A DNA stretch of 64,000 bases from an uncultured Gemmatimonadales bacterium (GTDB taxonomy: Bacteria > Gemmatimonadota > Gemmatimonadetes > Longimicrobiales > RSA9), in assembly GCA_963741945.1 (NCBI GenBank), contig CAVUKA010000001.1:128001-192000 (forward strand), in the 5' to 3' direction. The notes beneath the pieces were generated by a model that was not told where the DNA came from, searched no databases, and saw only the letters and a program-made list of their open reading frames with translations. Below, in pieces: positions 35,636 to 61,859 of this stretch (the first letter of the stretch is position 1; every line of letters starts with the position of its first letter). The position numbers and the translations under genes are program-made.

Positions 35636-36562
35636 TCAATCCCGGAGTGGCACCAGCAGGACGGGGGAGGAGACGCGCGGCACGACGGCGGCGGCGAAGC
35701 TGCCCGACAGCACGCCGGGCACGCCGGCGTGCCCGTGAGTCGCGATGACCAGCAGACCGACGGCCTGGCGGGCCATCACGTCCAGCGTCTCCTGCGTGGC
35801 GCTGCCGCGCCGTACCTCCGTGCTCGCTTCGACGCCCTCGGCGCGCAACGTCTCCAGGAGCGAGTCCATGTAGCGGCGCATGTCCTGCGCCTCCATCTCC
35901 AGCACGTCCGCAGTGGCGGATGGCGCGAAGATCGCCGGTGCGCCGCGCTCGGGCGGCAGACTCGTGCGAGTGGGGACGACCGTCAGGAGATGCAGCCGGG
36001 CGCCACACTTCCGGGCGAGCATCGTCGTCAGCGGCAGCGCGCCGGGGCCGTGGACCACCGGGTCGAGCGCCACGATCCAGTGACCGCAGTCCAGCCCCGA
36101 CGCCGGTCCCTCCGGGCGCACCACCAGCACGGGACGGGTCGTGAGCCGCAGCGTCTGTTGCGCGATGCTCCCCAGCAGCAGGTCCCGCAAGCCGCCCGAG
36201 CCGTGCGTGCAGAGCAGGATGAGCCCCACCGCGAGCTCATCAGCGTGCTGCGCGATGCCCGCGGCGACATCGCCGATGGCGGGCTCGTGCACGTGCGCCA
36301 CCACGCGCACGCCTCGCCGACGCAGCCCCTCCGCCACGACATCCAGGTAGCGTGTCGCGTCATGCGGCCGGTGCAGGTGCGGCTGGCCGTGCACGTGCGT
36401 GGGCGCGCCACGCTCCACAACGTGCAGGAGCGCCAGCTCGGCATCGAGCAGCCCGGCCAGCTCTTCCGCGAGCGCCAGGGGGGTCTCCGCCAGGGCGGAG
36501 CCATCCAGTGGGACGAGGATGCGGTCCACGCGCGCGTTCCCCAGAGCGTCCGTCTCGATCAT
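35636..36562 (-). CDS. universal stress protein (two Usp domains)
   Basis: ILVPLDGS, THG.GG...LLGSIA, THGHAG...GSFA; start overlaps the mntH stop. Confidence 0.9.
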   Translation of the reverse strand: MIETDALGNARVDRILVPLDGSALAETPLALAEELAGLLDAELALLHVVERGAPTHVHGQPHLHRPHDATRYLDVVAEGLRRRGVRVVAHVHEPAIGDVAAGIAQHADELAVGLILLCTHGSGGLRDLLLGSIAQQTLRLTTRPVLVVRPEGPASGLDCGHWIVALDPVVHGPGALPLTTMLARKCGARLHLLTVVPTRTSLPPERGAPAIFAPSATADVLEMEAQDMRRYMDSLLETLRAEGVEASTEVRRGSATQETLDVMARQAVGLLVIATHGHAGVPGVLSGSFAAAVVPRVSSPVLLVPLRD

Positions 36563-44859: not shown

Positions 44860-46995
44860 TCAGCGGCGACCGTTGAACGTCGCCCGCACGCCGAGGTGGA
44901 ACGCGCGGCCCGGCCCCGGCTCGAAGAACCGCCTGCCGAAGGCGTTCACGGCCACGGACGAGATGTAGTCGGTGTCGAGGATGTTGGAGATGCCGGCGAA
45001 GGGATCGACGCGGAGGCCAGGGGCGTCGACCGTCCATTCCCCCCGCACCGACAGAAGGGTGTAGCCGTCGGCAGCGTCGGTATTGGCATCGTCCACGGGC
45101 GTCCTGCCCGAGACCGTGGCATCGAGGGCGATGAGCGCGCGGTCGAGCCGACCGGTCAGCGTGCCTTCGAACCGGTGGGGTGTGACGCCGGGCACACGGT
45201 TCCCGCCATACTGCCTGGCGTCGACTTCGAAGTCGCGGAACCGGGCGTCGGTCCAGGTATAGGCCATGTCGGCCCGCAGGCGTGGCGTGACGGACACGGA
45301 GACGGCCGTCTCCACGCCCTGATGTCGGGTGGTGCCAGCATTTCGGTAGTACTGCCGGCCCGGCGACGTGGCGACCTCGAACGGGATGAGCGCGTCTCGC
45401 ACACGCGCCCGGTAGACTGCGACCTGGTACGTCAGGCGCCCCGCGTCGCCGCGCGCACCGAGCTCGACGGAGGTCGTCCGCTGGGGCTCGAGGTCGGGGT
45501 TGAAGCCACCGGCCGAGTCGGGCCGATTGACCAGCTCGGTCGTCGTCGGCGTCTCGAAGGCGGTCGCGACATTGGCGTAGAGATCGAGGGCGCCGGCGAG
45601 GCGCGCGCGCACGCCGGCCGTGGGACTGAACGCGCTCATGACGCGCTCTCCGCTGTCGTTGGGATCGCCGTCGGTGAACCGATCGCGCGCGCGGAAGCGG
45701 TAGCTGTCGTAGCGTGCTCCGGCAGTGAAGTCGACGTCGTTGCCGATGGGGAGCCGCGTGTGGGTGAAGGCGCCCAGCTGCCGCACCCATTCCACCTGAC
45801 TGAGCACCAGGTCGCCGCGCGCGCCGCCGTCGTTCTCATGGTTGCGCCGGTCGTCCCTCTGGAGCCCCGCCTCGCCGCCGACGGCCACGCCCACGGGCCC
45901 GATGCCACCGAGCCACAGGACGCGGCCTCCGGCGGCCCGACGGTGGAGGTCGATGATGACGGGGGGAATCGGGTTGTCCAGCGTCTTGAGCAGTCCCCAT
46001 CCCGTCAGCTCCACCCGGCCGGCGCCTGTCCGCCGATCCCACCGGAGCCCGACCAGCCCCTGCCGCCCGGCCTCGCTCGTCTTCTGGGCCACATTGGCCG
46101 GATTCGCCTGCGTCGGGTCGGCGCGCAGCTGATTGGCGGTGAGGGAGCCCGGGTTGTCGGCGGCATAGTCGACGAGGGCGCCCAGCGCATCGAGCCGGCC
46201 GCCGGCGAGGGATCCGCTGCCGCGGAAATCGGCGACGGTGCGACTCGATGCGGCGAAGGCGCGGAAGCCATCGACGTGGCGCCGCGTCAGGCGCGCCTGA
46301 TACGCGAAGCCGGCGCTGCGGCCGCCGACGCGCGTGTGGGCGCGCGCCAGGCCACCGCTCCCCGCCAGCAGCCCGGCCTGTACGGCCAGCGGGGCGTCGC
46401 CGGGATCGGTGGTGTGGATCATGACCACGCCGCCGGCCGCGTTGCCATAGATGGCCGAGGCTGGACCCCGCAGCACTTCCACCTCGCGCACCGCGGCCAG
46501 GTCGAGGCGGCTGAGATCGGTCTGGCCGTCGGGCAGTGTGGCCGGAATGCCGTCGATGTAGACCCTCACGCCGCGCACGCCGAACGCGGAGCGGGCGCCG
46601 AAGCCGCGGATGCTGAGCCGGTCACCGAGCGCCTCGTTGTAGCGGTTGTCGGCCTGGAGCCCCGGCACGCCGTGCAGCACGCCCGCGAGCCCCCGATCGG
46701 CGCGCGCGGCCGCGACGCGCTGCGGCCCGAGCACGCTGACCGCGTAGGGCGCCGCGGCCGCCCCGTCATCCGTGCGAACCACGATGGGAGGCAGGGAGAT
46801 GGGGGGCGCGGTGTCCCGGGCGGCTTCGCCTGCGGACGTCTGCGCGGACTGCCGAGCGGCCGCCGTACGGGCGGTATCGGGGACCTGTGCTCCGACGCCG
46901 GCCGGCAGCGCTGCGAGGGCCACGCCGGCCGGCAGCGCTGCGAGGATGGCGCGAGCCGCCGCGCGCAGGTGGAGGATGCGCGGGATGTGGTGCAT
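44860..46995 (-). CDS. TonB-dependent receptor, YncD/PqqU-like
   Basis: Plug SIRGFGARSAFGVRG...DGIPATLPDGQ, EVLRGPASAIYG; FETPT; C-terminal FEPGPGR. Confidence 0.9.
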   Translation of the reverse strand: MHHIPRILHLRAAARAILAALPAGVALAALPAGVGAQVPDTARTAAARQSAQTSAGEAARDTAPPISLPPIVVRTDDGAAAAPYAVSVLGPQRVAAARADRGLAGVLHGVPGLQADNRYNEALGDRLSIRGFGARSAFGVRGVRVYIDGIPATLPDGQTDLSRLDLAAVREVEVLRGPASAIYGNAAGGVVMIHTTDPGDAPLAVQAGLLAGSGGLARAHTRVGGRSAGFAYQARLTRRHVDGFRAFAASSRTVADFRGSGSLAGGRLDALGALVDYAADNPGSLTANQLRADPTQANPANVAQKTSEAGRQGLVGLRWDRRTGAGRVELTGWGLLKTLDNPIPPVIIDLHRRAAGGRVLWLGGIGPVGVAVGGEAGLQRDDRRNHENDGGARGDLVLSQVEWVRQLGAFTHTRLPIGNDVDFTAGARYDSYRFRARDRFTDGDPNDSGERVMSAFSPTAGVRARLAGALDLYANVATAFETPTTTELVNRPDSAGGFNPDLEPQRTTSVELGARGDAGRLTYQVAVYRARVRDALIPFEVATSPGRQYYRNAGTTRHQGVETAVSVSVTPRLRADMAYTWTDARFRDFEVDARQYGGNRVPGVTPHRFEGTLTGRLDRALIALDATVSGRTPVDDANTDAADGYTLLSVRGEWTVDAPGLRVDPFAGISNILDTDYISSVAVNAFGRRFFEPGPGRAFHLGVRATFNGRR
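46895..46945. repeat. 24-bp direct repeat (27-bp period) in the receptor signal peptide
   Basis: ACGCCGGCCGGCAGCGCTGCGAGG at 46895 and 46922, encoding LAALPAGV twice. Confidence 0.9.
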
Positions 46996-47152
46996 ACGCC
47001 TCGGTGCGAACGGGCGGATCCGCACGGGCGGCGCCCCGGGACGTGGGCGGATGCGCCGGCGCGATGAGTGGCAGCGGCATTGGCAACATCCGTTCCCTAC
47101 ACGCAGCGCGGAGCCGCAATGGGGGGCAGCCGGATCCGAGGGCGCTCGCGGC

Positions 47153-47434
47153 TCAGGGTTGACCGGATCGCGGACTGCTCAGCTCCTTCCTGAAGTCGCT
47201 CTCCTCTCGCAGGCGCCGGAGCTCGGACTCCGTTCCCTCCAGCTGGTTCTCCAGCAGCGACACCCTGGATTCGAGCGACGCCAGCCGACCCCCGGTCTCC
47301 GGCGTCTGCCGGACCAGCGCCAGAGACTCCACGATCGGTTTGAGCGCGAAGCGAGCGGTGATCCCCGCGACGGGGATGAGGATGACGAGCGTTCCCATGA
47401 TGACCGCGGCGAGCCCTACCCAGTCGATCGGCAT
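47153..47434 (-). CDS. small single-TM protein with coiled coil
   Basis: GGAGG RBS; MPIDW..., TM helix, then heptads RLASLESRVSLLENQL. Confidence 0.8.
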   Translation of the reverse strand: MPIDWVGLAAVIMGTLVILIPVAGITARFALKPIVESLALVRQTPETGGRLASLESRVSLLENQLEGTESELRRLREESDFRKELSSPRSGQP

Positions 47435-47541
47435 ATCGGTCCTCCCCCGTTCGGATTCGACACCGTGTGCGCGCTTCCGGCTGTACGGAGCGCCCGCGCC
47501 GCCGGTTTCGCAAGAGTCCGGAGCCGGCCGGTTCGGCCCGG

Positions 47542-48963
47542 CTATGGCAGCAGGGCGATCCCGCGCAGGAGCGAGAATGCCGGGCCGGCGGCGAGGCCGA
47601 GGGCGAGGGTGGCGAGCGCAGCGACGGCGAGGGTCCAGCGGGCCCAGGGACCGAGAACGGCCACGCGTGCGCCCGCCGCCGGGTCGTCGAAGTAGACGGG
47701 GGCGAGGACGCGCAGGTAGTAGAAGAGGGAAACCACGGTGTTCGCCACGGCCACGCCGGCGAGCCAGCCGTAGCCGGCGTCGATGGCGGCGCCGAACACC
47801 ACGAGCTTCCCGAAGAACCCCACGAGCGGGGGCACCCCCACCATGGACAGGAACGCCACGACGAGGGCGGCCGCGGCCCCCGGGCGAGCGGCGCCGAGGC
47901 CGTGGTAGTCGGCGAGGTTCGTGCGTCCCCGCAGGTGGGTGACCACGGCGAACGCCGCCATGGTAGCCATCCCGTAGCCGAGCAGGAAGAAGAGGAGCGC
48001 GGGGAGCGCGAGCGGCGTGCGTCCGAGCACCACCACGGCCACCAGCGCGTACCCGGACTGGGACACCGACGACCAGCCGATCAGCCGGCGCACGTCGGTC
48101 TGCCAGAGCGCGGCCAGGTTGCCGATGCTCATGGTCGCAACGGCCAGGGCGGCCACCAGCAGACGCCACGGCACCATCCCTTCCGGCACCAGCATCAGCA
48201 AACGGCCCAGCGCCACGAGCGCGCCGATCTTCGGCACCACGCCCAGGAACGCCGCCGATGGCGCGGGCGCCCCCTCCGCCACGTCCGGGAGCCATGCGTG
48301 GGCGGGGAACGCGGCCAGCTTGTATGCCAGTCCCACGGCGACGAAGCCGATGGCCACCAGCACGCCCCAGGAGGATGGGGGCGGTCGGCTGGCGAGCGCC
48401 GCCTGCGTCGCCGGGTAGCCGGTGTCGCCGACCAGGCCGAACAGCAGCACCACGCCCGTGGCCAGCAGCGCGTTGGCCAGGGCGCCGATGAGGAAGTACT
48501 TCATCCCCGCCTCGACGGAGAGCGGCCAGTCGCGGTGGTAGGCGGCGAGGGTGAAGCCGGTGACGGAGGAGAGGAGGACGGCAATGACCAGCTCCATGGT
48601 GTCGGCGGCGCCGGCCATGAGGATGGCGCCAAGGGCGGAGAGGAGGAGCACCCCATAGTACTCGCCGTGGCGGCGGTCCTCGCGCAGCCACTCCGGTGTG
48701 AGCCCCGCCGAGAGGGCCGTGAAGGCGAGGATGAGGAGCGATGCGGCCGCCGTGGCGCCGTCGAGCGCCCAGCTCCCGCGGAACGTGAGCCGCGGCGCTC
48801 CCGTTCCACGGGTGACGACGAACGCGGCCGCCGCTGCGAGCCCGGCGAGGGCGATGAGGGCGCCCCACCAGTGCCGCCGCTGCGCCACGAACGAAGCGGT
48901 CAGGACCGCGACAATGGCGGAGACCAGGAGCGCGATCTCGGGAAGGACGTCGCCGACCGGCAT
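47542..48963 (-). CDS. nuoN: NuoN-like antiporter subunit
   Basis: EAGMKYF, YKLAAFPAHAWLPDVAEGAP, VPKIG, GFFGK, SLFYYLR. Confidence 0.9.
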   Translation of the reverse strand: MPVGDVLPEIALLVSAIVAVLTASFVAQRRHWWGALIALAGLAAAAAFVVTRGTGAPRLTFRGSWALDGATAAASLLILAFTALSAGLTPEWLREDRRHGEYYGVLLLSALGAILMAGAADTMELVIAVLLSSVTGFTLAAYHRDWPLSVEAGMKYFLIGALANALLATGVVLLFGLVGDTGYPATQAALASRPPPSSWGVLVAIGFVAVGLAYKLAAFPAHAWLPDVAEGAPAPSAAFLGVVPKIGALVALGRLLMLVPEGMVPWRLLVAALAVATMSIGNLAALWQTDVRRLIGWSSVSQSGYALVAVVVLGRTPLALPALLFFLLGYGMATMAAFAVVTHLRGRTNLADYHGLGAARPGAAAALVVAFLSMVGVPPLVGFFGKLVVFGAAIDAGYGWLAGVAVANTVVSLFYYLRVLAPVYFDDPAAGARVAVLGPWARWTLAVAALATLALGLAAGPAFSLLRGIALLP

Positions 48964-50445
48964 TCAGCGCCCCACCACCAGGAACCCGGCGGTGCTCTCG
49001 ACGAGCGTGAGGAGGAAGCGCGGGTAGACCCCGATGGCGATCACCGCGGCCAGCAGCACTCCGAGCACCGCGCGCTCCGAGCGCGACAGGTCCGGGAATG
49101 CCGCCCATCGCTCGGGCAGCTCGCCGGTGAAGAGGTCGCGCAGCATGAGCAGGAAGAGGGCGGCCGTGACCAGCACGCCGACCAGGGCCAGCCCGGCGAG
49201 CCAGGGGAAGACGCCGAACGTGCCGATGAAGATCTGGATCTCGGCCACGAAGCCGGCCAGGCCGGGGAGGCCGAGGCTGGCGAAGGCGGCCACGACGGCG
49301 GCGACGGCGAGCACGGGGGCCGGACCGGCCAGCCCGCCGAACGCGCCGAGGTCGTACTCCTTCGCCCGCTGCCAGAACGACCCCGCGATGAGGAAGAGGG
49401 ATCCCGTGATGAGCCCGTGCGCCACCATCTCCACTGTGGCCCCGGTGAGCGCGAGCCGGCGCGCTCCTTCGGCGCCGTGGAGCGCCCCGCCCGCGGCCGC
49501 GATCCCCAGAACGGCATAGCCCATGTGATTGACCGACGTGTAGGCGATCCGCCGCTTCAGGTCGCGCTGCGCCAGGGCGACGAGGGCGCCATAGAGGATC
49601 GAGACCAGCGCGATGACGCCGATGACGAACGCGTAACGGTGGAAGGTCTCGCGCATCATGGAATACGGGATCCGGATCAGCCCGTACGTCCCCATCTTGA
49701 GCAGTACGCCTGCCAGGATCGCGGAGCCCGGGCCTGGCGCATCCACGTGCGCAGGGGGCAGCCAGGTGTGGACGGGGACCACGGGCGTCTTCACGCCCAG
49801 CCCGATGCCGAAGCCGAGGAGCGCGAGGCCGGCCAGGCCGCTGCCGGCCAGCGGCTGCTGCGCGATGATGGCGCGCATGTCGAAGGTGCGGGGGTCCGTC
49901 GCCAGGTACAGGGCGAGGATCGCCAGCAGCATCGTGAGTGACCCGGCCAGCGTGTAGAGGAAGAACTTGAGGGCGGCGCGGCGGGCGTCGCCGTGGCCCC
50001 ACCGGCCGATGAGGAAGAACATCCCCACCAGGCTCAGGTCGAAGAAGACGTAGAAGAGCAGCAGGTCCAGCGCGAGGAACACGCCCAGCGAGACGGACTC
50101 GAGGAACAGGAGCCAGGCGTAGTACTGGCGCGGCCGCCCCTTCGTGTCCACCGGATAGGCCGTGGCGCCGGAAAAGAGGAGGGCGCTCATGGTGGCGACC
50201 GCGAGGGCGATTCCGTCGACACCGAGGCGATAGCCGACGCCGAGCGAAGGGACCCACGGCACGTCCACCACGAGCTGGAACTGTGGTCCGGCCGTGTCGA
50301 AGCGGAGCCACGCCCCCACGAGCAGGAGGAAGGGGACCGCCGCGGCGACCATGGCAAAGCGCCGCGCCGCGGCTTCGCTCCAGCCAGGCCGGAGCGCCAG
50401 CGCGAGGGCGGAAAGGAGCGGCACCACGAGTGTCGCCGTCAGCAT
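48964..50445 (-). CDS. nuoM: NuoM-like antiporter subunit
   Basis: LGVDG, KFFLYT, VKTPVVPVHTWLP, LLKMGTYG, GFVAE. Confidence 0.92.
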   Translation of the reverse strand: MLTATLVVPLLSALALALRPGWSEAAARRFAMVAAAVPFLLLVGAWLRFDTAGPQFQLVVDVPWVPSLGVGYRLGVDGIALAVATMSALLFSGATAYPVDTKGRPRQYYAWLLFLESVSLGVFLALDLLLFYVFFDLSLVGMFFLIGRWGHGDARRAALKFFLYTLAGSLTMLLAILALYLATDPRTFDMRAIIAQQPLAGSGLAGLALLGFGIGLGVKTPVVPVHTWLPPAHVDAPGPGSAILAGVLLKMGTYGLIRIPYSMMRETFHRYAFVIGVIALVSILYGALVALAQRDLKRRIAYTSVNHMGYAVLGIAAAGGALHGAEGARRLALTGATVEMVAHGLITGSLFLIAGSFWQRAKEYDLGAFGGLAGPAPVLAVAAVVAAFASLGLPGLAGFVAEIQIFIGTFGVFPWLAGLALVGVLVTAALFLLMLRDLFTGELPERWAAFPDLSRSERAVLGVLLAAVIAIGVYPRFLLTLVESTAGFLVVGR

Positions 50446-50449
50446 CGGT

Positions 50450-52393
50450 TCAGCCTCCCAGGATCAACAGGACGAGAAGGATGCCCAGCCCCACCATGAT
50501 GAGGCGGTAATACTGGTGGGCGAGCCCCGTCTGGAGCCGCCGGGCCCACGAGCCCGCGCGGCCCACCAGCCGGGACAGGCCCTCCGGAGCGCCGTCGATG
50601 AGGACTTCCGCCCCCCGCTTCCCGGCCACGGCCAGCCGGGCCGCGGCATCGGCCGCCCACCACACCGTTCCATCCACGACGGCATCATCGAACCGGGCGA
50701 GCAGGCGAGCGCTGTCCCGCGCCACGCCGGGCAGCAGCCACACCGCCCGGTCCAGCACGCCATCATCGAAGCGCGCGAGCAGGTCGGCACACCGCTGAGC
50801 GGGCCGCGCGATGACGAGCCGGGCCAGCGCGGGGAGCCCGAGCCAGTCGGCGGCCGGCGCAGCACCGGCCTCCCCCAGCCGCGGCCGGAAACGCGCAACC
50901 GCCCAGCCGATCGCCACTCCGACCGTGACCAGGAGCAGTGAAGCCGCGAGCTCCCACGCCTCGCTCGACGGCACGATCCCCGCCAGCGCCTCCGCGACTC
51001 GCTGCGCCACGGGCGCGGCCCAGAGCAGCGAGAGCAGTGCGGTGGCGGCCGCGAGCAGGTAGAGCGCCCCGCGTTCTGCCGTGCGCGGCGGGCGGCCGCT
51101 CTCCCCCTCCCCGCACCCCGCTCCGCCGCGGCCGAACGCCTGGAACCAGAAGCGGGCCATGTAGGCGGCCGAAAGTCCACCGGCGATGCTCACGGCCACC
51201 GCCAGCCACGGGGAAGCGTGCCCGGCCGCGGTCACCACCTCCTCCTTCGTCCAGGCGGCTCCGAGGGGGGGCACACCGGCCAGCGCGGCCGCGGGGAGCG
51301 CGGAGGCAATGGCCACCCCGGGCAGCGCGCGCCCCAGCTTCATCCCGGGCAGGCGATAGCTGCCCGTGCAGCCGTGAGCGACTCCCGAGGCGAGGAAGAG
51401 CGGCGCCTTCGCCAGTGCGTGGGCGACGAGGTGGAGCACCGCCACGGCGGGATACCCGGCGCCCACGGCTACGAACATCAGGCCGTAATGGGCGGAGGTG
51501 GAGCCGGCCAGAAGTCGCTTGGCATGGGGCTGGAGGAGGGCGACGAGCCCGCCCGCCAGTGCCGTGGTCACGCCCACCGCCATGGCCGCCGGCCCGAACC
51601 AGGCCACACCGCCGAGCACCGGCTCCAGTCGGATAAGCAGGAACGCCCCGGCGGCCACCATGGTGGCCGCGTGGAGCAGCGTGGAGACGGTCACCGGCCC
51701 TTCCATGGCCGCGAACAGCCACGGCGCAAACGGCAGCTGCGCCGACTTCGCCGCGGCCGCGGCCAGCAGCCCCGCCGCTACCAGGTGGAGCGGCAGCCCG
51801 GTAAGGCCGGGCAGCGCCCCGTAGCGCAGCGAACCCGCACCGGCGAACGCAGCGACCACGGCCAGGAACATCCCCAGGTCGCCCGCGCGCGTGGTGAGGA
51901 AGACCACCGCCCCCGCCCTCGCCTTCCCGCGCTCCCACCACCCGTGGGCCACCAGCAGCGCCGAGCAGGCGCCGATCACTTCCCAGCCGACCACCAGCGT
52001 GAGCAGGTCCGCCGCCCCCGCAACCAGCTCCATGGCCCCCGCGAAGAACGTGAGCAGCACCAGCAGACGCCGCAGTCCTCGCGCCTCCTCGTGGTAGGCC
52101 GCGTACGCCACCACCGGGGCGGCGACCAGCGGTACCAGGACGGCGAAGATCGGCACCACCGGCGAGGTCCCATAGGCGTAATCCAGCGACAGGCCCAAGT
52201 CGGCCGCCCACAGAAGCCGACCGGTCCAGCCATGGACGCCCGCCAGCCCGGCCAGTGCGGCGGTGGCGACCATGGTTCCCGTGCTCAGCACGGCCAGCGG
52301 CGCTCGCCCACCCCTCCCATCTCCACGGGCGAGCCCCGTCAGCCCCAGCAGCAGGGCGCCGAAGACCGGAAGCAGGGGAACCAGCCAGGCCAT
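50450..52393 (-). CDS. nuoL: NuoL-like antiporter subunit
   Basis: GWE, RAGD, KSAQLPF..WL..AMEGP..VS.LLH, HALAKA; C-terminal LQTG. Confidence 0.92.
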   Translation of the reverse strand: MAWLVPLLPVFGALLLGLTGLARGDGRGGRAPLAVLSTGTMVATAALAGLAGVHGWTGRLLWAADLGLSLDYAYGTSPVVPIFAVLVPLVAAPVVAYAAYHEEARGLRRLLVLLTFFAGAMELVAGAADLLTLVVGWEVIGACSALLVAHGWWERGKARAGAVVFLTTRAGDLGMFLAVVAAFAGAGSLRYGALPGLTGLPLHLVAAGLLAAAAAKSAQLPFAPWLFAAMEGPVTVSTLLHAATMVAAGAFLLIRLEPVLGGVAWFGPAAMAVGVTTALAGGLVALLQPHAKRLLAGSTSAHYGLMFVAVGAGYPAVAVLHLVAHALAKAPLFLASGVAHGCTGSYRLPGMKLGRALPGVAIASALPAAALAGVPPLGAAWTKEEVVTAAGHASPWLAVAVSIAGGLSAAYMARFWFQAFGRGGAGCGEGESGRPPRTAERGALYLLAAATALLSLLWAAPVAQRVAEALAGIVPSSEAWELAASLLLVTVGVAIGWAVARFRPRLGEAGAAPAADWLGLPALARLVIARPAQRCADLLARFDDGVLDRAVWLLPGVARDSARLLARFDDAVVDGTVWWAADAAARLAVAGKRGAEVLIDGAPEGLSRLVGRAGSWARRLQTGLAHQYYRLIMVGLGILLVLLILGG

Positions 52394-52397
52394 CGCG

Positions 52398-52703
52398 TCA
52401 GCCTTCCAGGGTGTCCAGCCCCTCGGTGGTGTCGGCCTGACGGTTCCGGTAGACCGCCACCACCAGCGCGAACCCCATCGCCATCTCCACTGCCATGATC
52501 GCCATGATGACGATCGCCAGCAGCTGTCCCCGGGGCGCGAAGCCCGACGCCATGGCCCAGAACGCCACGGTCGCCAGGATCAGCCCGTTCAGGATCAGCT
52601 CCAGCCCCATCATCAGCATCACGAACGACTGCTGCGAAAGCGCGCCGTACACGCCGATCCCCACCAGCACGGCCGCAACCACCAGGAGCGCCGGCAACGT
52701 CAT
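52398..52703 (-). CDS. nuoK: NuoK-like subunit
   Basis: GLELILN, GQL, AVE.A.G; three TM helices. Confidence 0.9.
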   Translation of the reverse strand: MTLPALLVVAAVLVGIGVYGALSQQSFVMLMMGLELILNGLILATVAFWAMASGFAPRGQLLAIVIMAIMAVEMAMGFALVVAVYRNRQADTTEGLDTLEG

Positions 52704-53266
52704 GGCCGCCTCCCTGTCGGCTCGCCGCCAGGCTCCAGCCCGGGCGGGCGCGATCCCACGTCGGCGGGGCCGTAACGGCCGCGTCGGCTGGAGAGGATGA
52801 CAGTGCCGATCATGGCGGCGAGGAGCGTGACGCCGGCGGACTCGAAAACGAGCATGGAGCTGCCGAGGAGCTCGACGCCCAGGGCGGCGATCGGGTCGGC
52901 GGGCGGCGTCGAGCCCGCCCGGTGGAACGGAACGCCCAGCCCGACCGCCGCGAGGATGCCGCCCACGCCGACAGCGGCGGCCAGGGCGGTCGCGGGCTGG
53001 TGGACCATGTTCATCGGGTTGAGCCCGGCCGGGTTCATCATGAACATGACCATGAACAGGGCCATGACCATCATCTCGACGGCCATCATGAAGATGAGTG
53101 CGAAGCCGAGGTAGGGCGCGGCCAGGAGCAGGAGGATGGCGGCGACGGCCACGAACGACGTGAGCAGGTAGAAGGAGGCGCGAACCATGGAATCGGTGCG
53201 GAACACCCGCCAGCCGGTGACGATGGCGAGCGCGGCGAAAGCCCAGAACAGCGCGTCGATCGCCAT
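52700..53266 (-). CDS. nuoJ: NuoJ-like subunit, Met-rich TM3
   Basis: Position between H and K; LG..L....LVFESAGV.LL..MIG motif. Confidence 0.85.
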   Translation of the reverse strand: MAIDALFWAFAALAIVTGWRVFRTDSMVRASFYLLTSFVAVAAILLLLAAPYLGFALIFMMAVEMMVMALFMVMFMMNPAGLNPMNMVHQPATALAAAVGVGGILAAVGLGVPFHRAGSTPPADPIAALGVELLGSSMLVFESAGVTLLAAMIGTVILSSRRGRYGPADVGSRPPGLEPGGEPTGRRP

Positions 53267-54198
53267 CAGAACAGGGCCACGAGGCCGGCTTCCAGGAGCC
53301 CCAGGAACGAAAGCGGGAGCAGGCCCAGCCAGACCAGGGAGACCACGCGCTCCGTGGCGATGCGGGCCGTGCTCCTGCCGAGGAAGGCGAGCAGCGTCAG
53401 GACGGCCAGCGTCTTGACGGCGAGCCAGACCGGTCCCGGAAGCCACGGCCCCAGCCACCCACCCAGGAACACCGTGGCCGCCACGGCGGAGAACGCCACG
53501 AGCATCGCGCGCCGGGCGAACTCCCAGACGAGCCTCGAAATGCCCGAGACCTCGGATGACGCCCCGCCCGCCAGGTCCGCGCTGTCGGCGAAATCGAGCG
53601 GTCCCCAGAAGGCGACGCCGAGCCCGACGAAGAGGAAGAGCGGCAGTCCGAGGGGCTGTCGGACCACGTTCCACACCCCGTGCTGGGACTCGACGATCGC
53701 CGACAGCCTCAGCGATTCCGCCGGGAGCGCGGCCGCGATGAGGACGAACATGCTCACCAGCATGTAGGTCAGCCCGAGGGCGACGTAGCGGTATCCGCCG
53801 ATCAGCGACAGGTGCGCGTTCGCGGCCCAGCCGTGAAGGAAGATGACCACCACCGCCAGTGCCTCGACGGAGCCCCAGAGCACGATCCCGGCGGCGACAT
53901 CCGCCGGCGCCAGCGCGCTCGACCATGGCACTGCCGCCAGCCCCACCACCGCCAGCGCCAGGTAGAGCGAAGGCGCCAGCATCCAGGCGGGCGCGTCGGG
54001 CCGCTCGGTCCGGTTCCGCTGCTGCACCAGCAGGAAGGCCGCCTCCCGGAGCGGAGCCAGGAGAACCGGCCCCGACGAGCGACCGGCCACGGCCGCCGCG
54101 GCGAGCCGGTCCAGGATGGCAAAGCCCCACACGCCGGCCAGTGCGGCGGCGGCGAGCACCCCCACGGTCGTAGCCGTCCCCGCCGTGGCCGGAATCAT
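53266..54198 (-). CDS. nuoH: divergent NuoH-like subunit
   Basis: About 8 TM helices; GWAAN..SLIGG.R, SLRLSAIVESQ, WLAVK; acidic loop reduced to PLDFADSADLAGG. Confidence 0.8.
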   Translation of the reverse strand: MIPATAGTATTVGVLAAAALAGVWGFAILDRLAAAAVAGRSSGPVLLAPLREAAFLLVQQRNRTERPDAPAWMLAPSLYLALAVVGLAAVPWSSALAPADVAAGIVLWGSVEALAVVVIFLHGWAANAHLSLIGGYRYVALGLTYMLVSMFVLIAAALPAESLRLSAIVESQHGVWNVVRQPLGLPLFLFVGLGVAFWGPLDFADSADLAGGASSEVSGISRLVWEFARRAMLVAFSAVAATVFLGGWLGPWLPGPVWLAVKTLAVLTLLAFLGRSTARIATERVVSLVWLGLLPLSFLGLLEAGLVALF

Positions 54199-55301
54199 GC
54201 CCCGCCTTCCGCTGTGGGAGTCAGGTCGGCGGCCACCACCACCAGGCACGCCTCGCTCCACTCGAGGCCGGGCAGGTGCTCCGCCAGCCACGCGGCCGCA
54301 TCCGCATGGCCGCCGGCCACCGCGTTGTCGAACGCCGCCGGATCGCCGGCCGCCGTGGACAGGAGGCCATGCAGGTGCGAGCGGACCGTGCCGCCCCCGG
54401 GCAGGGGCACGGCCGGGAGCGCGGGCAGCGTGGCGCCGAAGCGCACCAGCGACTGGAGCCGGCGCACGCGGGACGCGGTGAGGTCGGGGGCGAGCGCGGC
54501 CGTGAGCGCGCGGTCGGCCAGGGCGTGCGCGCCCGCCATGTCCAGGATCCAGGCCGCGCGACGCAGGCGGACGCGCGCCCCGGCCACGTCCACGTCCGCG
54601 CGGCGAGCGGAAGCGCGGCCCCCACCATCGCTTACGGCCGAAACGGCCCGGGGGTACGGTGGCTCCAGGAGCTCCGCCTCCTGCACCACGTCGCCCTGGA
54701 GCACGAGCCGGAGCACGAGTCCGGGGGGGAACGACGGAAAGAAGGGACCGATGGTGAAGGAGAGCTGATCGAGGGCGAGACCATCGCGGATGTCGTCGGC
54801 CGTCATGGCCATCGGGCGACCGTACGGCTTCCCCCCCATCATCCCTTCCCCGCCCTGCCCGTGATCGCCGAGTCCGCGCCACGGGTTCGGCGGGCGGTCC
54901 GGCAGCCACGCCGGCTCGGACGCTCGATCCCCGCGCAGCACTGCGCTGTGGAGCCCCCGCAGCGCGGGGAGCGGATCGTCGTCACCGGGGACCACCTGGC
55001 CGCTGGCGACCGACGCGCCCCCGCCGTGAAGATCCGGCTGTGGCGCGTCATCGCCCCAGTACAGCGTGGCCCGGGGGTGCGGGATCTGGTCGTGGACGCG
55101 GGCGAGCGCGGCCCCGAATCGTGACGGCACCCAGCCCGCCACCATCAGGATCGTCGCATGCCGTGGCGATCGGACGAGCCGCAGGTCGCGCCGGAGCGAA
55201 AGCGCCTCCACCCGGTCCCCTGCCCCCTCGCCGATGGCCGGGAAGATGGGCACCGGGGCGGCCGCTGCCATGGCCCCAAGCCAGCGGCGCAGCGCGCTCA
55301 C
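54195..55301 (-). CDS. degenerate NuoB-NuoD-like fusion without Fe-S cysteines
   Basis: SPRHATILMVAG...VHDQIPHPR is NuoB-like; IGPFFP..G.L...LQGDVV is like the NuoD N-terminus; LPGLEWSEA...DL is like the NuoD C-terminus; GTG start overlaps the nuoA stop. Confidence 0.7.
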   Translation of the reverse strand: MSALRRWLGAMAAAAPVPIFPAIGEGAGDRVEALSLRRDLRLVRSPRHATILMVAGWVPSRFGAALARVHDQIPHPRATLYWGDDAPQPDLHGGGASVASGQVVPGDDDPLPALRGLHSAVLRGDRASEPAWLPDRPPNPWRGLGDHGQGGEGMMGGKPYGRPMAMTADDIRDGLALDQLSFTIGPFFPSFPPGLVLRLVLQGDVVQEAELLEPPYPRAVSAVSDGGGRASARRADVDVAGARVRLRRAAWILDMAGAHALADRALTAALAPDLTASRVRRLQSLVRFGATLPALPAVPLPGGGTVRSHLHGLLSTAAGDPAAFDNAVAGGHADAAAWLAEHLPGLEWSEACLVVVAADLTPTAEGGA

Positions 55302-55651
55302 TGCCACCGGAAGATCCCTTCGCGCCAGCCGTAGACAATGCCGACCGAGAGGATCGTGAGGAACATCCCCATCTCGACGAGCGCCTTGATCCCCTCGCGG
55401 ACGTAGACCACGGCCCACGGATACATGAACATCATCTCCATCTCGAACGCGATGAAGAGCAGGGTCATGGAGTAGAACCGCACGTGGTAGCGGCTCCACG
55501 CGTGCGTCGCCGGCTCACCACCGCCGAGGAACGGCGCCTTCTGCGGCCCGGTCAGCGCACGCCGGTCGGCGCGGGTCAGCCCCAGCTGCACGGCAAGCGC
55601 AAAAGCGGCCGCCGTCCCGAACACGATGAGCAGGTTGAGGAGCATGCGCAT
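55298..55651 (-). CDS. nuoA: NuoA-like subunit
   Basis: VRFY...LFIAFEME..F.YPWA; ends YGWREG..W. Confidence 0.9.
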   Translation of the reverse strand: MRMLLNLLIVFGTAAAFALAVQLGLTRADRRALTGPQKAPFLGGGEPATHAWSRYHVRFYSMTLLFIAFEMEMMFMYPWAVVYVREGIKALVEMGMFLTILSVGIVYGWREGIFRWQ

Positions 55652-55821
55652 TTGATTCCGTTTGCGCGCCGCAAGCATTGTTCCTCCCTGCACGAGGGCT
55701 TTGCACCGCCTGGCAACCGCCTCGGTGGCGCTGCTGGCGCGCGCGGGCGCCGGTTGCCGACTAGCCCGCCCACGCCGCCGTCGCACTGGTCCCGCCCCGG
55801 CCGGCGCGCTACGCTGTAGCC

Positions 55822-57057
55822 ATGGCACAACCGAACGTGCTGGCGATCGTCCTCGCCGGAGGCGAGGGGAAGCGGCTGCAGCCGCTCACGCGGGACCGGA
55901 CCAAGCCGGCGGTCCCGTTCGGCGGAGACTACCGGCTCATCGATTTCGCCCTCTCGAACCTGGCCAACGCCGGCTTCCTGCACATTGTCGTGCTGACGCA
56001 GTACAAGAGCCACAGCCTGGACGTGCACCTGGGGAAGGCGTGGCGCATGTCGCCGATCCTGGGCAACTACGTCATCTCCGTGCCCGCCCAGATGCGGACG
56101 GGGCCGCAGTGGTTCGCGGGCTCCGCCGACGCCATCTACCAGAACCTGAACCTGATCGGCGACGAGCGGCCGGAGCACGTCATCGTCTTCGGCGCGGACC
56201 ACATCTACCGCATGGACCCGCGCCAGATGCTGGACGAGCACGTGGAAAGCGGCGCCGGCGTGACCGTGGCCGGGATCCGGGTCCCCCGCTCCCTGGCCAG
56301 CCAGTTCGGCATCATCGAGCCTTCCGCCGACCGCCGGCGCATCGAGCGCTTCCGGGAGAAGCCGCCCGAGGCCGAGGGGCTCCCCGACGCGCCGGACCAG
56401 GTCTTCGCCTCCATGGGCAACTACCTCTTCCGCACGGACACGCTCGTGGAGATGGTCACCCGTGACGCCGAGGACCCGGACTCCCGGCACGACATCGGCG
56501 GCGACATCATCCCCCGGCTCGTGGACGCGGCCGACGCCCACGTCTACGACTTCGCCGACAACGACGTCCCCGGCGCCACCGACCGCGACCGCGGCTACTG
56601 GCGCGACGTGGGGACGCTGGAAGCGTACTACGACGCCCAGATGGACCTGGTCTCCGTCGATCCCATCTTCAATCTCTACAACCGGCAGTGGCCGATCCTC
56701 ACCGCGCGGGACCCCGCTCCGCCGGCCAAGTTCGTCTTCGCCTCCCACGGCCGCACCGGCCACGCCCTGGACTCCATGATCTCCGCGGGCGTGGTCATCT
56801 CCGGCGGCGAGGTGCGCCGCTCCGTGCTCTCCCCCGGCGTCTACGTGCACAGCTACGCCAGCGTCGAGGACTCGGTCCTCATGCACAACGTGGACGTGGG
56901 CCGCCACGCCATCGTCCGGAATGCCATCATCGACAAGAACGTGCGCATCCCAAGGGGCGCCCGCATCGGGGTGGATCCGGAAGTGGACGCCGCCCGGTTC
57001 CATGTCACGGAGCGTGGCATTGTCGTCATCGGCAAGGGCCAGACGGTGGCGCCGTGA
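55822..57057 (+). CDS. glgC: glucose-1-phosphate adenylyltransferase
   Basis: [45 protein letters not shown]. Confidence 0.97.
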
Positions 57058-58668: not shown

Positions 58669-61600
58669 ATGACCAGGAGTCACTGGCGTACGGCTCTGTT
58701 CGCCATGCTCGCGTTCCCGGCGGCGCTGTTTGCGCAGGACCGGGGCTCGATCGCGGGTGTGGTGACGGCCGAGGACACGAATGAGCCCCTGCAGGGGGTT
58801 CAGATCCAGCTGAAGGGAACGGGTCAGGGAACACTGACCAACCAGACGGGTGGGTTCCTGTTGACGAACGTCCCCGTGGGCGAGCAGACGCTGCAGTTCA
58901 CGTCCATCGGGTATGCGACGGTGTCGCGGACGGTGACGGTGGAGTCCGGCGCCACGTCGACGGTGCGTGTGTCGATGGCGACGGACGTGCTGGGCCTGGA
59001 CGAGATCGTGGTGGTCGGGTACGGGAAGGAGAAGCGGCGGAACGTGACGGGGGCGATCTCGAGCGTGTCGCCATCGGAGATCTCCGAGCAGATCCCGGCG
59101 CCGAACGTGGAGAACGTGCTGCAGGGCCGTGTGGCGGGGGTGCAGGTGGTGCAGAACTCGGGCAGCCCGGGTTCGGCCATGACGATCCGGGTGCGCGGCA
59201 CGGCATCGATCACGGCGGGCAACCAGCCGCTGTACGTGGTGGACGGCGTGCCGATGATCCAGGGCAACTTCTCGACGCTGGACAACCTGTACGGCGGTCA
59301 GGGGATCGATGCGCTGGCGGATCTGAACCCGAACGAGATCGAATCGGTGGAGGTCCTGAAGGATGCGTCGGCGGCGGCGATCTACGGGTCGCGCGCGTCG
59401 AACGGTGTGGTGCTGATCACCACGAAGAAGGGCGTGGTGGCGGACCGTCCGAAAGTGCAGTACAGCGCGTACTACGGGCAGCAGGAGGCCTGGCGGATCC
59501 CGGGCTTCACGAACGCCGTGCAGTACATGGACGTGACGAACGAGGGGTACGCCGCGTACGTGCAGCAGGCGTACGGCATGACGATCCCGGACTTCTTCGA
59601 CTGGGGTTATGGCGTTCCCGGGATCGACGCCTACATGAGCTACGACAACGACAACGTCAACAGCTGGTACGAGATCCCGGCGGGGACGGATACCGACTGG
59701 CTGCGTGCCATGCTGCAGACGGCGCCGGTATCGAACATGTCCGGCTCCATCGCGGGTGGTAACGAGAAGGCGCGCTACTACATCTCCGGGACCTGGTTCA
59801 ACCAGGACGGGATCGTCCAGGGGTTCGGGTACAACCGGGTGAACGGCCGGATCAACCTGGACTACAGCGTGACGGACGCGGTCACGCTGGGGACCAACGT
59901 GGCGCTGACGCACGCGGTGACGGACCGGATGGCGAGCGACAACACCATTTACGGCCCGTTCTCCAACGCCATCGCCAACGCGCCCATCGATCCGATCTAC
60001 GCGAATCCGGAGAAGACGGAGTTCAACTACAACACGTCGTACGCGAACCCGGTGGCGCTTGCGAACAAGAACTCCGCGGAAGAGCGCAACGTCCGAATCC
60101 TGGGCAACGCGTTCGCCGACTGGAACTTCATGCAGGGGCTGGACGCGAAGGTGAGCGTGGGGCTGGACCATTACGCGCTGCGCTCGCGCTCCTACGACTC
60201 GCCGGAGGTGGGTCCTGCCACGGGCTCGAACGGCCAGGCGTACGCGGGCAACTCCTTCGCCAGCAAGCTGGTGACGGAAGCCACGGTGAACTGGATCCGT
60301 GACCTGGCGGAGAACCACAGCTTCTCCGGCGTCGTCGGGACATCGTACGAGCAGAACACCACGGAGACGGACTGGGTGACGGGGACGAACTTCCCGTCCA
60401 GCGCGTTCCGCTATCTCACGTCGGCGGCGAGCATCACGGGCGGCAGCTCGAGCCTCACCGACTGGTACCTGCTCTCCTTCTTCGGCCGCGCGTCGTACAC
60501 GTTCGCGGACCGGCTGACGGCCACGTTCAACATCCGGACGGACGGCTCCTCGCGCTTCGGCGCGAACAACCGCTATGGCGTGTTCCCTTCGGGCTCGCTG
60601 CTGTGGCGCGTGACGGACGAGCCGTTCATGGGGGACCAGACGCTGCTGAGCAACCTGGCGCTGCGCGTGAGCTACGGGCGCACGGGGAACCAGCAGGGGA
60701 TCGGCAACTTCGCGTCTTGGGGGCTGGTGGGCACCGGCTACAACTACGAGGACACGCCGGGGACGGCGCCGGCGCAGCTGGCGAACCCGGACCTGAGCTG
60801 GGAGAAGACCACACAGTTCAACGTGGGCGGCGATGTCGCCTTCCTGAACGGGCGGCTGGGCTTCAGCGCCGATTACTACATCAAGAACACGACGGACCTG
60901 CTGCTGGACCGGCCGATCCCGTATTCCACGGGCTTCGCGCTGATCACGCAGAACATCGGTGCGGTGAACAACAAGGGCGTGGAGCTGACGGCCACGGCCA
61001 AGCTGGCGCAGGGACCCGCGCGCGGCTTCAACTGGACGGCCGAGATGAACGTGAGCGCCAACCGCAACGAGGTGACGGCGCTGTACGGAGACAACCCGCT
61101 CAACTACGGCTTCGTCAGCCGCGTCGAGGTGGGGCAGCCGCTGGGCGTGTTCTACGGCTACGTCACCGACGGTCTGTTCCAGGCCGATGCCGAGGCGTGC
61201 CACGACCCCACGGGCGCGACGTGCGCCGGGACGGGGACGGGGTACCAGAGCTACTACACCACCGCCGGCGACATCCGCTTCAAGGACCTGAACGGTGATG
61301 GTTTGATCACGTCCGAGGACCGGGCCGTGATCGGCTCGCCGTGGCCCGACTTCCAGGGCGGCTTCACCAACACAATGTCGTTCGGGGGCTTCGACCTGAA
61401 CGCCTTCTTCCAGTTCTCGAAGGGGAACGACATCTACAACGCCACCCGGATCTACACCGACCAGTTCGGTGGGTACTGGGACAACAACTCGGATCGCGCG
61501 CTGGACCGGTGGACGCCGGAGCACACGGACACGAATCAGCCCCGGGCGATCTGGTACGACCTGCCCAACAACGCGCGGGACTCCGACCGGTTCGTGGAGG

Positions 61601-61848
61601 ACGGCTCGTACGTCCGGCTGAAGAACCTGGTACTCGGCTACACGCTGCCGAATGAGGTGGCGGGGAAGCTGGGCTTCAGCCAGTTCCGCCTCTACGTCCA
61701 GGGGCAGAACCTGATGACGTGGACCAACTACAGCGGCTTCGACCCCGAGGTGAACTACGCGGGCGATGCCAACGTCACGCGGGGCACGGACTTCTACACG
61801 CTGCCACAGGCCCGGACGCTGTCCTTCGGCGTCAATCTCGGGCTGTGA
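58669..61848 (+). CDS. susC: SusC/RagA-family TonB-dependent transporter
   Basis: LDEIVVVGYG, PLYVVDG, IESVEVLKDASAAAIYGSRASNGVVLITTK, ANPDLSWE, FDPE. Confidence 0.97.
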   Translation: MTRSHWRTALFAMLAFPAALFAQDRGSIAGVVTAEDTNEPLQGVQIQLKGTGQGTLTNQTGGFLLTNVPVGEQTLQFTSIGYATVSRTVTVESGATSTVRVSMATDVLGLDEIVVVGYGKEKRRNVTGAISSVSPSEISEQIPAPNVENVLQGRVAGVQVVQNSGSPGSAMTIRVRGTASITAGNQPLYVVDGVPMIQGNFSTLDNLYGGQGIDALADLNPNEIESVEVLKDASAAAIYGSRASNGVVLITTKKGVVADRPKVQYSAYYGQQEAWRIPGFTNAVQYMDVTNEGYAAYVQQAYGMTIPDFFDWGYGVPGIDAYMSYDNDNVNSWYEIPAGTDTDWLRAMLQTAPVSNMSGSIAGGNEKARYYISGTWFNQDGIVQGFGYNRVNGRINLDYSVTDAVTLGTNVALTHAVTDRMASDNTIYGPFSNAIANAPIDPIYANPEKTEFNYNTSYANPVALANKNSAEERNVRILGNAFADWNFMQGLDAKVSVGLDHYALRSRSYDSPEVGPATGSNGQAYAGNSFASKLVTEATVNWIRDLAENHSFSGVVGTSYEQNTTETDWVTGTNFPSSAFRYLTSAASITGGSSSLTDWYLLSFFGRASYTFADRLTATFNIRTDGSSRFGANNRYGVFPSGSLLWRVTDEPFMGDQTLLSNLALRVSYGRTGNQQGIGNFASWGLVGTGYNYEDTPGTAPAQLANPDLSWEKTTQFNVGGDVAFLNGRLGFSADYYIKNTTDLLLDRPIPYSTGFALITQNIGAVNNKGVELTATAKLAQGPARGFNWTAEMNVSANRNEVTALYGDNPLNYGFVSRVEVGQPLGVFYGYVTDGLFQADAEACHDPTGATCAGTGTGYQSYYTTAGDIRFKDLNGDGLITSEDRAVIGSPWPDFQGGFTNTMSFGGFDLNAFFQFSKGNDIYNATRIYTDQFGGYWDNNSDRALDRWTPEHTDTNQPRAIWYDLPNNARDSDRFVEDGSYVRLKNLVLGYTLPNEVAGKLGFSQFRLYVQGQNLMTWTNYSGFDPEVNYAGDANVTRGTDFYTLPQARTLSFGVNLGL

Positions 61849-61859
61849 GGAGAAGGCAT

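Follow-up and report, generated by a model that had tools for sequence, protein, structure and literature searches.

Complex I (NDH-1) is usually treated as a redox-driven proton pump, and the coupling between its quinone site and its antiporter-like subunits is still debated. In Mrp antiporters, L/M/N-like subunits use protons to drive cation transport. The gene clusters of the Ehr complexes are hydrogenase-like in subunit set. The complexes themselves, reportedly described by Marreiros and colleagues in 2013, are said to be relatives of complex I and the group 4 hydrogenases, with a NuoD-like subunit that lacks the metal site and with no known function. Here we describe a complex-I-like operon of eight genes (nuoA, a NuoB/NuoD fusion and nuoHJKLMN) on the minus strand, at positions 47542-55678 of a 64,000-nucleotide stretch of DNA from an uncultured Gemmatimonadales bacterium (contig CAVUKA010000001.1; this whole stretch is called the window below). 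The operon belongs to a branch of the complex I superfamily that is conserved, mobile and as yet without a functional characterisation, and it probably encodes a redox-independent ion-translocating complex. From the sequences we advance, tentatively and a little short of an even call, the fuller reading that this complex would carry out proton-driven export of copper(I), or Cu(I), through a rebuilt chamber and E-channel of the complex I chassis.

Gene clusters of this layout are already in print. In Salinispora, marine Streptomyces and Kocuria, the order nuoA-hypothetical-nuoHJKLMN has been published under the name "partial NDH-1 operon 2" or "partial nuo operon"; the passages concerned take its products to pump protons or sodium as part of marine adaptation or osmoadaptation, and they report no functional test (PMC3314556, PMC6676996, PMC6002675). 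Both features by which Penn and Jensen (2012) defined "partial NDH-1 operon 2", the gene order and a separate complete nuo operon, are found here, and the published operons, likened to ours by gene order rather than by sequence alignment, probably belong to the same family. They share the single hypothetical protein between nuoA and nuoH and, according to the same passages, a patchy spread shaped by horizontal transfer; those passages differ from the present account in making no mention of a NuoB-NuoD fusion, of methionines or of copper (PMC3314556, PMC6676996, PMC6002675). In Marinobacter atlanticus, a cassette of nuoADHJKL plus a hypothetical gene sits inside the copper-resistance (cop) cluster and shares its expression, and the section of the report devoted to it speculates on copper-redox-driven pumping (Eddie et al. 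2021, PMC8233155). Compared by that section's description, the cassette is likewise complex-I-like, lacks an input module and lies among cop genes, and it differs in having seven genes and a single antiporter-like subunit, with no NuoM or NuoN. In the literature library searched, no paper was found that recognises the fusion, describes the methionine core or proposes that this operon transports Cu(I), and a 2025 survey of Nuo variants (PMC12361115) mentions neither copper nor this variant. The gene cluster is therefore in print, and the identity of the fusion, the methionine core and the Cu(I) reading were not found there.

Like complex I, the operon encodes seven membrane subunits in the canonical order, with L, M and N sister to their namesakes and the proton-axis residues kept, and its cap has NuoB and NuoD folds. 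Unlike complex I, it has no NuoC, NuoI, electron-input module, iron-sulfur (Fe-S) cysteines or quinone-site histidine; NuoB is fused to a NuoD of half length, methionines have been built into the E-channel, the glutamate of transmembrane helix (TM) 5 in NuoN is a leucine, and glutamates of NuoH are changed. Mrp is also redox-free: in it, protons power the passage of a cation through a NuoJ/K-like module of smaller size, and it is most likely the working model by analogy; NuoA, NuoH, the cytoplasmic NuoB/D cap, the putative Met-lined path and the grouping of L, M and N with Nuo set the operon apart from it. The operon differs from Ehr in having a full complex I membrane arm with L/M/N orthologues. 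The proposed task, Cu(I) export, would be that of CusCBA and the P1B-type ATPase CopA, which use methionine ligands for Cu(I) and have no homology to the operon, CopA drawing on ATP and CusA being a resistance-nodulation-division trimer.

An eight-gene operon without redox sites

As a first-pass annotation of this DNA had described, the genes form a translationally coupled nuoA-[B/D fusion]-H-J-K-L-M-N operon, with junctions that overlap by 1-10 nt or are spaced by 0-4 nt, in a window of about 70% G+C. From nuoA onwards the products are a NuoA-like subunit of 126 residues (55298..55678; Pfam PF00507, E 1.9e-24), the Cys-less NuoB-NuoD fusion of 370 residues (54195..55307; assigned by family profile, fold matches and longer members), in which no cysteine is conserved, a NuoH-like subunit of 310 residues (53266..54198; PF00146, E 8.4e-40), a NuoJ-like subunit of 188 residues (52700..53266; PF00499), a NuoK-like subunit of 101 residues (52398..52703; PF00420), and three antiporter-like subunits assigned by Pfam, NCBIfam and tree, namely NuoL (647 residues, 50450..52393), NuoM (493 residues, 48964..50445; TIGR01972 at 470 bits, over its cut-off) and NuoN (473 residues, 47542..48963). 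The end of the operon at 47542 stood as annotated, and its upstream limit moved from 55651 to 55678, where an ATG is preferred because it follows a GGAGGA ribosome-binding site. The fusion starts with GTG, a start backed by the conserved N-terminus of its homologues. Seven of the eight products (A, H, J, K, L, M and N) score over the Pfam gathering threshold of their respective Nuo families, and in NCBIfam L, M and N each match their own namesake ahead of Mrp or hydrogenase subunits.

A survey of open reading frames (ORFs) and Pfam domains agreed with the claim that nuoC, nuoI, nuoEFG and hydrogenase genes are missing, finding none of these between or beside the eight ORFs, where NuoC and NuoI were not searched for genome-wide. 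The claimed lack of Fe-S motifs was likewise borne out: the eight products hold 5 cysteines in 2,708 residues (four in L, one in the fusion, none in A, H, J, K, M or N), with no Fe-S cluster motif or CxxC-like spacing among them. Across the family, no conserved cysteine, haem or flavin motif was found in any subunit.

The 370-residue ORF is a NuoB-NuoD fusion without cofactor sites. Pfam returns only a weak NuoB match for it (16.3 bits against a cut-off of 27), and a family profile of 22 homologues matches PSST/NuoB chains from solved structures of complex I (E 4e-8) in the segment PRxA..VAG...DQxPxPR. In an AlphaFold model (predicted local distance difference test, pLDDT, 80.4; predicted template modelling score, pTM, 0.80), residues 1-130 resemble PSST/NuoB in fold (Z 11.6, Foldseek E 4e-4), and the stretch 166-366 resembles NuoD 8qby_D (Z 11.8, 193 aligned residues, root mean square deviation 5.2) and also the hydrogenase relatives HycE (Z 11.7) and MbsL (Z 11.2). 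Comparison of the fusion family with the genome's own NuoD by hhalign gave no match; the NuoD assignment is made because of the fold match and because of PF00346 (Complex1_49kDa) matches in longer family members, seven of ten of which lie over the cut-off, two under it and one without a match. The protein is laid out as a NuoB fold lacking the N2 cysteines (residues ~1-145), a loop (~145-175) and a shortened NuoD fold (~166-366) of about half the usual length, with ~190 of 410 residues aligned. In the 22-sequence alignment 41 columns are invariant, and no cysteine is found in them; the single cysteine is C354, and the canonical ...GSC... site of NuoB reads ...WG... in the alignment to PSST. 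The canonical quinone-site motif of NuoD is GPQHPxxHG, followed by the HRGxEK region; in the fusion this histidine motif is replaced, the first-strand motif being GPFFPSFPPG. An invariant Gly/Met-rich loop, HGQGGEGMMGGxPYGRPMxMT, with its methionines at 156, 157, 166 and 168, joins the two halves.

The predicted place of the fusion is the site on NuoH and NuoA at which NuoB/NuoD dock. In a three-chain prediction with NuoH, NuoA and the fusion as partner, each supplied as an alignment, the interaction score ipSAE (interaction prediction score from aligned errors) was 0.81 against 0.56 for the best of three controls; 58 of 80 solved complexes reach the mark used for docking, as do 2 of 110 mismatched pairs. 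At least 92% of contacts are shared between runs, with a partner pLDDT of at least 71. The predicted interface involves conserved segments of the fusion (46-50, 67-78, 133-140, 163-168 in the Met loop, and 179-192), NuoH 33-66, 129-137, 199-222 and 275-284, and the NuoA loop 40-67 including H59 and H65. Because complex I has been solved many times, this result is a likeness and not independent proof. In the ESM Atlas, the clusters nearest to the fusion are unnamed "hypothetical protein" entries. No longer fused forms of the protein were found in a search that covered only proteins of 850-2425 residues, which makes it weak evidence. As a separate lead only, a Pseudomonadota NuoD-like cluster in the Atlas (score 0.77) combines the heavy-metal-binding domain PF19335 in 95% of its members with PF00346 in 82%; it may be the Marinobacter-type cassette and a domain-fusion link of NuoD-like caps to metals.

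The operon is not the genome's only set of Nuo subunits. The assembly (4.09 Mb in 8 contigs, 96.7% complete) encodes six PF00361 genes, three in the operon and three on contig C8, where a complete canonical locus runs from nuoA through nuoN with its own L, M and N and with the only PF00346 (NuoD) match of the genome. The operon is therefore an extra arm and not the partner of an orphan nuoBCDI set. Its subunits are 25-38% identical to the genome's canonical copies on C8 and 39-84% identical to their counterparts in distant phyla.

A quick maximum-likelihood tree of 59 rows (L, M and N of both the family and the canonical type, taken from this genome and five host genomes, and Mrp-like sequences; support by the Shimodaira-Hasegawa-like approximate likelihood ratio test, SH-aLRT, only) placed the family L, M and N in separate clades, each with SH-aLRT 100% and stems of 1.2-1.7 changes per site. 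Each clade is sister to, and not inside, its canonical namesake: L to NuoL (95), M to NuoM (100) and N to NuoN (100). Mrp-like rows fall outside the family and canonical L/M/N groupings; the sampling is narrow, without cyanobacterial NDH-1, Fpo or Ehr rows. The first-pass view that the system is neither complex I nor Mrp has thus held: the redox sites are gone and L, M and N lie outside the canonical clades, and NuoA and NuoH are present and the Mrp-like rows stand apart, in a comparison in which the MrpE and MrpG families were not searched for. The complex is most likely a stand-alone transporter derived from respiratory complex I.

Methionines in the core and the proton axis

The A/H/J/K core is rebuilt, in A, J and K with methionine. 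NuoA keeps both TM2 carboxylates (E79 and E81) in the motif FEMEMMFMYPWA, compared with the canonical FDLExxFLxPWA, and H59, H65, M71, M80, M82, M83, M85, M103 and M105 are conserved across the family. TM3 of NuoJ reads FMMAVEMMVMALFMVMFMMNPAGLNPMNMVH against the canonical VYVGAVxVLFLFVVMMLD; it carries a methionine stripe of M60, M61, E64, M65, M68, M72, M74, M76 and M77, followed by M85, M87 and H89, and M61 lies at the site of Tyr59 in Thermus thermophilus Nqo10 (alignment to 4he8_J). In NuoK, E35 corresponds to Nqo11 E32 and is preceded by the conserved M29, M31 and M32, with M67 and M70 conserved too. Each of these methionines of A, J and K is conserved in at least 90% of 73-75 members. 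Both NuoK glutamates had been reported as retained, which is right for the window copy and not for the whole family, the second being kept in only 50-90% of 75 members. In NuoH, aligned to Escherichia coli NuoH (7nyh_H) and compared between family and canonical copies, the canonical TM1-2 loop motif is gone, the glutamate of the SYE motif (E. coli E157) is a methionine in the window copy and unconserved in the family, E241 is changed to Arg, and E216 and E220 are changed to Asp; D205, D208, Y136, R137, R279 and R284 are conserved.

The enrichment is also visible in overall composition. Family Met fractions are 0.067-0.113 for NuoA (n=73), 0.062-0.107 for NuoJ (n=74) and 0.059-0.119 for NuoK (n=75), against 0.025-0.051, 0.029-0.042 and 0.038-0.052 in 5-6 canonical copies from this genome and five host genomes. 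The ranges do not overlap and differ about twofold, and the family L, M and N are Met-poorer than the canonical ones. Since the enrichment is found in A, J and K and not in L, M and N, it is local to the region of the quinone-chamber exit and the E-channel. In sequence, the invariant Met and His residues gather about E-channel positions, with methionines next to the carboxylates, and by homology the conserved methionines would cluster there in space as well. The closest sequences of solved structures for A, J and K are those of cyanobacterial and chloroplast NDH-1 (6hum, 7wff) and not of proteobacterial or Thermus complex I, a likeness that hints at the branch from which the family arose.

The antiporter-like subunits, compared across the family with six canonical copies, keep most of their proton-axis residues. 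NuoL retains E138, D172, K216, H241, K292, H321, H325, K329, K383 and E384; NuoM retains K219, H226, K250, K297, H307, H343 and E402; and NuoN retains K215, H222, K245 and K386. In 63-69 of 67-69 members, L and M preserve their canonical charged and His residues and N preserves its lysines, so that the retention of antiporter lysines noted at first pass (K216/K383 in L, K219/K250 in M, K215/K245/K386 in N) extends to the family as a whole. Two positions have changed: the TM5 glutamate is an aspartate in NuoM (D136, 68/68 members) and a leucine in NuoN (L130, 67/67 members). NuoL is full length, and its C-terminal ~150 residues would be the lateral helix and last TM.

Spread of the family and its copper-gene neighbours

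Relatives of the fusion are numerous. Among 7,999 candidates scored from a 90%-identity collection, 454 matched at E<=1e-3, and a search of a 50%-identity library returned 261 clusters at E<=1e-30, 977 at <=1e-10 and 1,383 at <=1e-3, the weaker tiers of which take in ordinary NuoB. A fusion relative is encoded in 217 GTDB species genomes; locus counts below refer to the best 80 loci among those of these genomes. Of the 80 loci, 69 carry the full set of eight genes in colinear order and 9 end at a contig border. Two loci from metagenome-assembled genomes (MAGs), L055 and L069, hold nuoA and the fusion only, though the DNA runs on.

The operon is under purifying selection. The ratio of nonsynonymous to synonymous substitution rates (dN/dS) is 0.015-0.49 in 53 gene comparisons from seven congeneric pairs, with 0.18-0.49 for the fusion; the operon is therefore not decaying, in agreement with the first-pass argument from intact frames. 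The fusion was found in 0 of 60 relatives of the same genus, family and order (0 of 56 without the unpublished-flagged genomes G016, G017, G020 and G038), in which weaker matches cover only the NuoB segment of canonical complex I. This patchy distribution indicates horizontal acquisition, as the relevant part of an earlier report inferred for actinomycetes (PMC3314556). Two observations on individual loci stand beside these counts. The Salinisphaera loci L028 and L059 form a mosaic, with 94% identity in the fusion, 64% in NuoL and 73% in NuoN and a synonymous rate (dS) of about 1 or above from J through N, which suggests recombination within the operon. L052 and L055, on two contigs of one MAG labelled Bacillaceae, have near-identical nuoA and fusion genes, one operon being frameshifted (L052) and the other lacking H-N; this duplication is probably an assembly or binning artefact, and the Bacillaceae label is doubtful, the sequences being alphaproteobacterial-like.

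The surveyed neighbourhoods link the family to copper. Flanking ORFs of the 80 loci were clustered and the commonest clusters named by Pfam: multicopper oxidase, CopB, DUF411, CusA, CusB (with a heavy-metal-binding domain), P-type ATPase and MerR, and further cation diffusion facilitator (CDF), DsbD-like proteins, cytochrome c, DUF2946 and the ergothioneine genes egtB and egtD. With one representative per cluster used as a tblastn query, a strict copper gene lies within 10 kb of 31 of the 80 loci and in 18 of 45 genus labels (CopB at 16 loci, multicopper oxidase at 15, DUF411 at 11, CusA at 8, P-type ATPase at 7, CusB at 6 and DUF2946 at 5). The same copper queries gave 0 matches at six canonical nuo loci (117 kb). 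Because related genomes are not independent, these counts describe a recurrent association and not a statistic.

Three plasmids, taken from RefSeq annotation independently of our own gene calls, illustrate the arrangement. On that of Halomonas sp. KO116, CDF, DUF411, copC, copD, azurin, a two-component system, multicopper oxidase and copB are followed by three more genes, the operon, egtB and egtD. On that of Roseivivax marinus, the operon is followed by cueR, a P-type ATPase, a heavy-metal-associated (HMA) protein and a multicopper oxidase. On that of Acuticoccus sp., multicopper oxidase, DUF411, DsbD, P-type ATPase, cueR and two more genes lead to the operon, past which lie TolC, a copper oxidase and a cupredoxin. 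Ergothioneine is a copper-chelating thione, and its genes may be a second functional link of the operon to copper: egtB lies near 11 of the 80 loci. The ergothioneine-linked loci are L010, L018, L032, L048, L057, L062-L064, L071, L077 and L078, with plasmid L118; in Halomonadaceae, egtB and egtD come directly downstream of nuoN, and in Jiella they are found upstream of the operon.

The window itself offers ordinary surroundings. The operon is flanked by a TonB-dependent receptor and glgC, and also by a GT4 glycosyltransferase and a SusC/SusD pair. Directly 3' of nuoN, a 95-residue ORF (47153-47440, minus strand) shows a single predicted membrane helix plus a tail of coiled-coil-like sequence; neither Pfam nor NCBIfam gives a match for it, none of the 80 related loci has a counterpart, and it is not counted as a member of the system. 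Ordinary genes of the window also include a PqqU-like TonB-dependent receptor (44860-47025, minus strand), an MntH Mn(2+) transporter (36559-37896, minus strand), a 1,095-residue hybrid histidine kinase with CheB/CheR-like N-terminal parts (27017-30304, minus strand) and, on the plus strand at 58669-63197, a SusC/SusD-like pair that carries a carboxypeptidase-regulatory domain. Scanning 46900-56000 for promoters and terminators gave nothing useful, and there are no tRNA genes in the window. In a comparison of the insertion site with the same-genus genome G001, the flanking DNA gave a 47-base match only and the GlgC protein no match. No RNA sequencing run containing the operon stretch is listed among public runs.

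Proposed function and rival explanations

The first-pass annotation proposed a redox-independent ion transporter driven by the proton-motive force. That proposal gains support from the results above, and the evidence would narrow the substrate towards Cu(I); transport itself, its direction, its substrate and its coupling to protons are what we infer from it. In the proposed mechanism, protons would enter down the proton-motive force through L, M and N, and the energy would be relayed along the conserved Lys/His/Glu axis to the NuoA/H/J/K core. There the former quinone chamber and E-channel would have been remade as a chamber and path lined by Met, His and carboxylates, along which a soft metal cation would be expelled from the cytoplasm, with Cu(I) the likeliest substrate and Ag(I) a possible second one. 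The NuoB-NuoD fusion, having lost Fe-S and quinone ligands, would serve as a cytoplasmic cap whose invariant Met-rich loop sits at the mouth of the chamber.

Several results weigh against Cu(I) export. The weakest point for this window is that it has no local tie to copper: none of 13 copper and ergothioneine queries matched within its 64 kb. CopB was not found in this genome, and of the 80 homologous loci 49 lack a strict copper gene within 10 kb. A CueR-type box was not found 5' of nuoA in the 80 loci or the window; a lone match (1 of 80 loci, 2 mismatches) was discounted as an artefact, its offset lying outside the 400 bp scanned upstream. In the model of the fusion, the Met-rich loop has low confidence (pLDDT <50 at 157-169). 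With the TM5 glutamate of NuoN lost and the second NuoK glutamate variable, the canonical charge relay is short of two links, and coupling to L, M and N may differ or be weaker. Finally, many host genera are marine or halophilic, which fits the published Na+/osmoadaptation reading equally well.

That last point leads to the main rival, which we consider unlikely: an Mrp-like Na+ (or K+)/H+ antiporter for high salt or pH, with the A/H/J/K core carrying the alkali cation. Its architecture would parallel that of Mrp, whose L/M/N-like subunits import protons, and marine or halophilic genera, such as Halomonas, Salinisphaera, Chromohalobacter, Salinicola, Fulvimarina and Thioclava, predominate in the record titles of the 80 loci. 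However, alkali-cation sites use oxygen ligands and an invariant Met/His core is a soft-metal signature, and it is invariant Met and His, ligands of the soft-metal type, that this core holds. The commonest conserved neighbours are moreover copper genes and not osmolyte or Na+ genes. The same gene order does occur in marine actinomycetes and not in terrestrial relatives, according to the passages treating it (PMC3314556, PMC6676996, PMC6002675), whereas one of these sources, in the part concerned, records the operon in a strain from copper-rich mine fluids (PMC6676996). The sole public run containing the stretch is labelled freshwater sediment metagenome, a weak pointer away from salt, and high chloride, by stabilising Cu(I), could itself account for the saline bias under a copper reading.

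Copper might also be handled without export from the cytoplasm, by Cu(I) import or delivery for cuproenzymes, or by a membrane-potential-dependent sensor or chaperone working with periplasmic CopA/CopB. This shares the methionine and neighbourhood evidence with the export reading, and CopC/CopD, generally regarded as uptake proteins, are encoded beside the operon on the Halomonas plasmid. We find it improbable: three intact proton modules would be a costly drive for downhill uptake, and the Met-loop cap, cytoplasmic by NuoB/NuoD homology, suits the capture of metal from the cytoplasm.

A pump still driven by redox chemistry and fed by partners encoded elsewhere, either borrowed NuoB/C/D/I or a cytochrome c or cupredoxin, is more doubtful again. 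Near 11 of the 80 loci there are genes for cytochrome c, two plasmid copies have azurin or cupredoxin genes close by, and a "copper redox" idea was put forward in the relevant section on the Marinobacter cassette (PMC8233155). The NuoB/D position, however, is filled by a conserved, selected and cofactor-free fusion predicted at the NuoH/NuoA dock, conserved Cys, haem and flavin motifs are absent from all subunits, and the quinone-site residues have been replaced. A decaying, functionless duplicate of complex I, to which the missing redox subunits, the two MAG loci with only nuoA and the fusion, and the frameshifted MAG copy L052 might point, is refuted as far as sequence goes by the eight intact frames here, the dN/dS values, the 39-84% subunit identity across phyla with fixed gene order and the 261 clusters at E<=1e-30, and the 25-38% identity to the genome's own canonical subunits means that it is not a recent duplicate.

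Proton-driven Cu(I) export, if it is what the operon provides, would bear on both copper biology and complex I. The complex would then be the first complex-I-derived transition-metal pump, with a Met-lined Cu(I) path, three proton-importing modules and several protons spent per Cu(I), a description that we regard as possible with the balance somewhat against it. Several protons per Cu(I) would be enough to strip copper from tight cytoplasmic chelators. The operon would represent a new class of copper and silver resistance determinant, carried on plasmids and resistance islands, and the "marine adaptation" label of these genes would need revision. It would also add a new function to the superfamily, in which the quinone and E-channel chemistry has been swapped for metal-type ligands and the whole membrane arm has been kept. 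Such a natural, redox-free complex I would allow long-range coupling to be studied without electron transfer, and would make the coupling mechanism testable in reverse, with protons driving the substrate.

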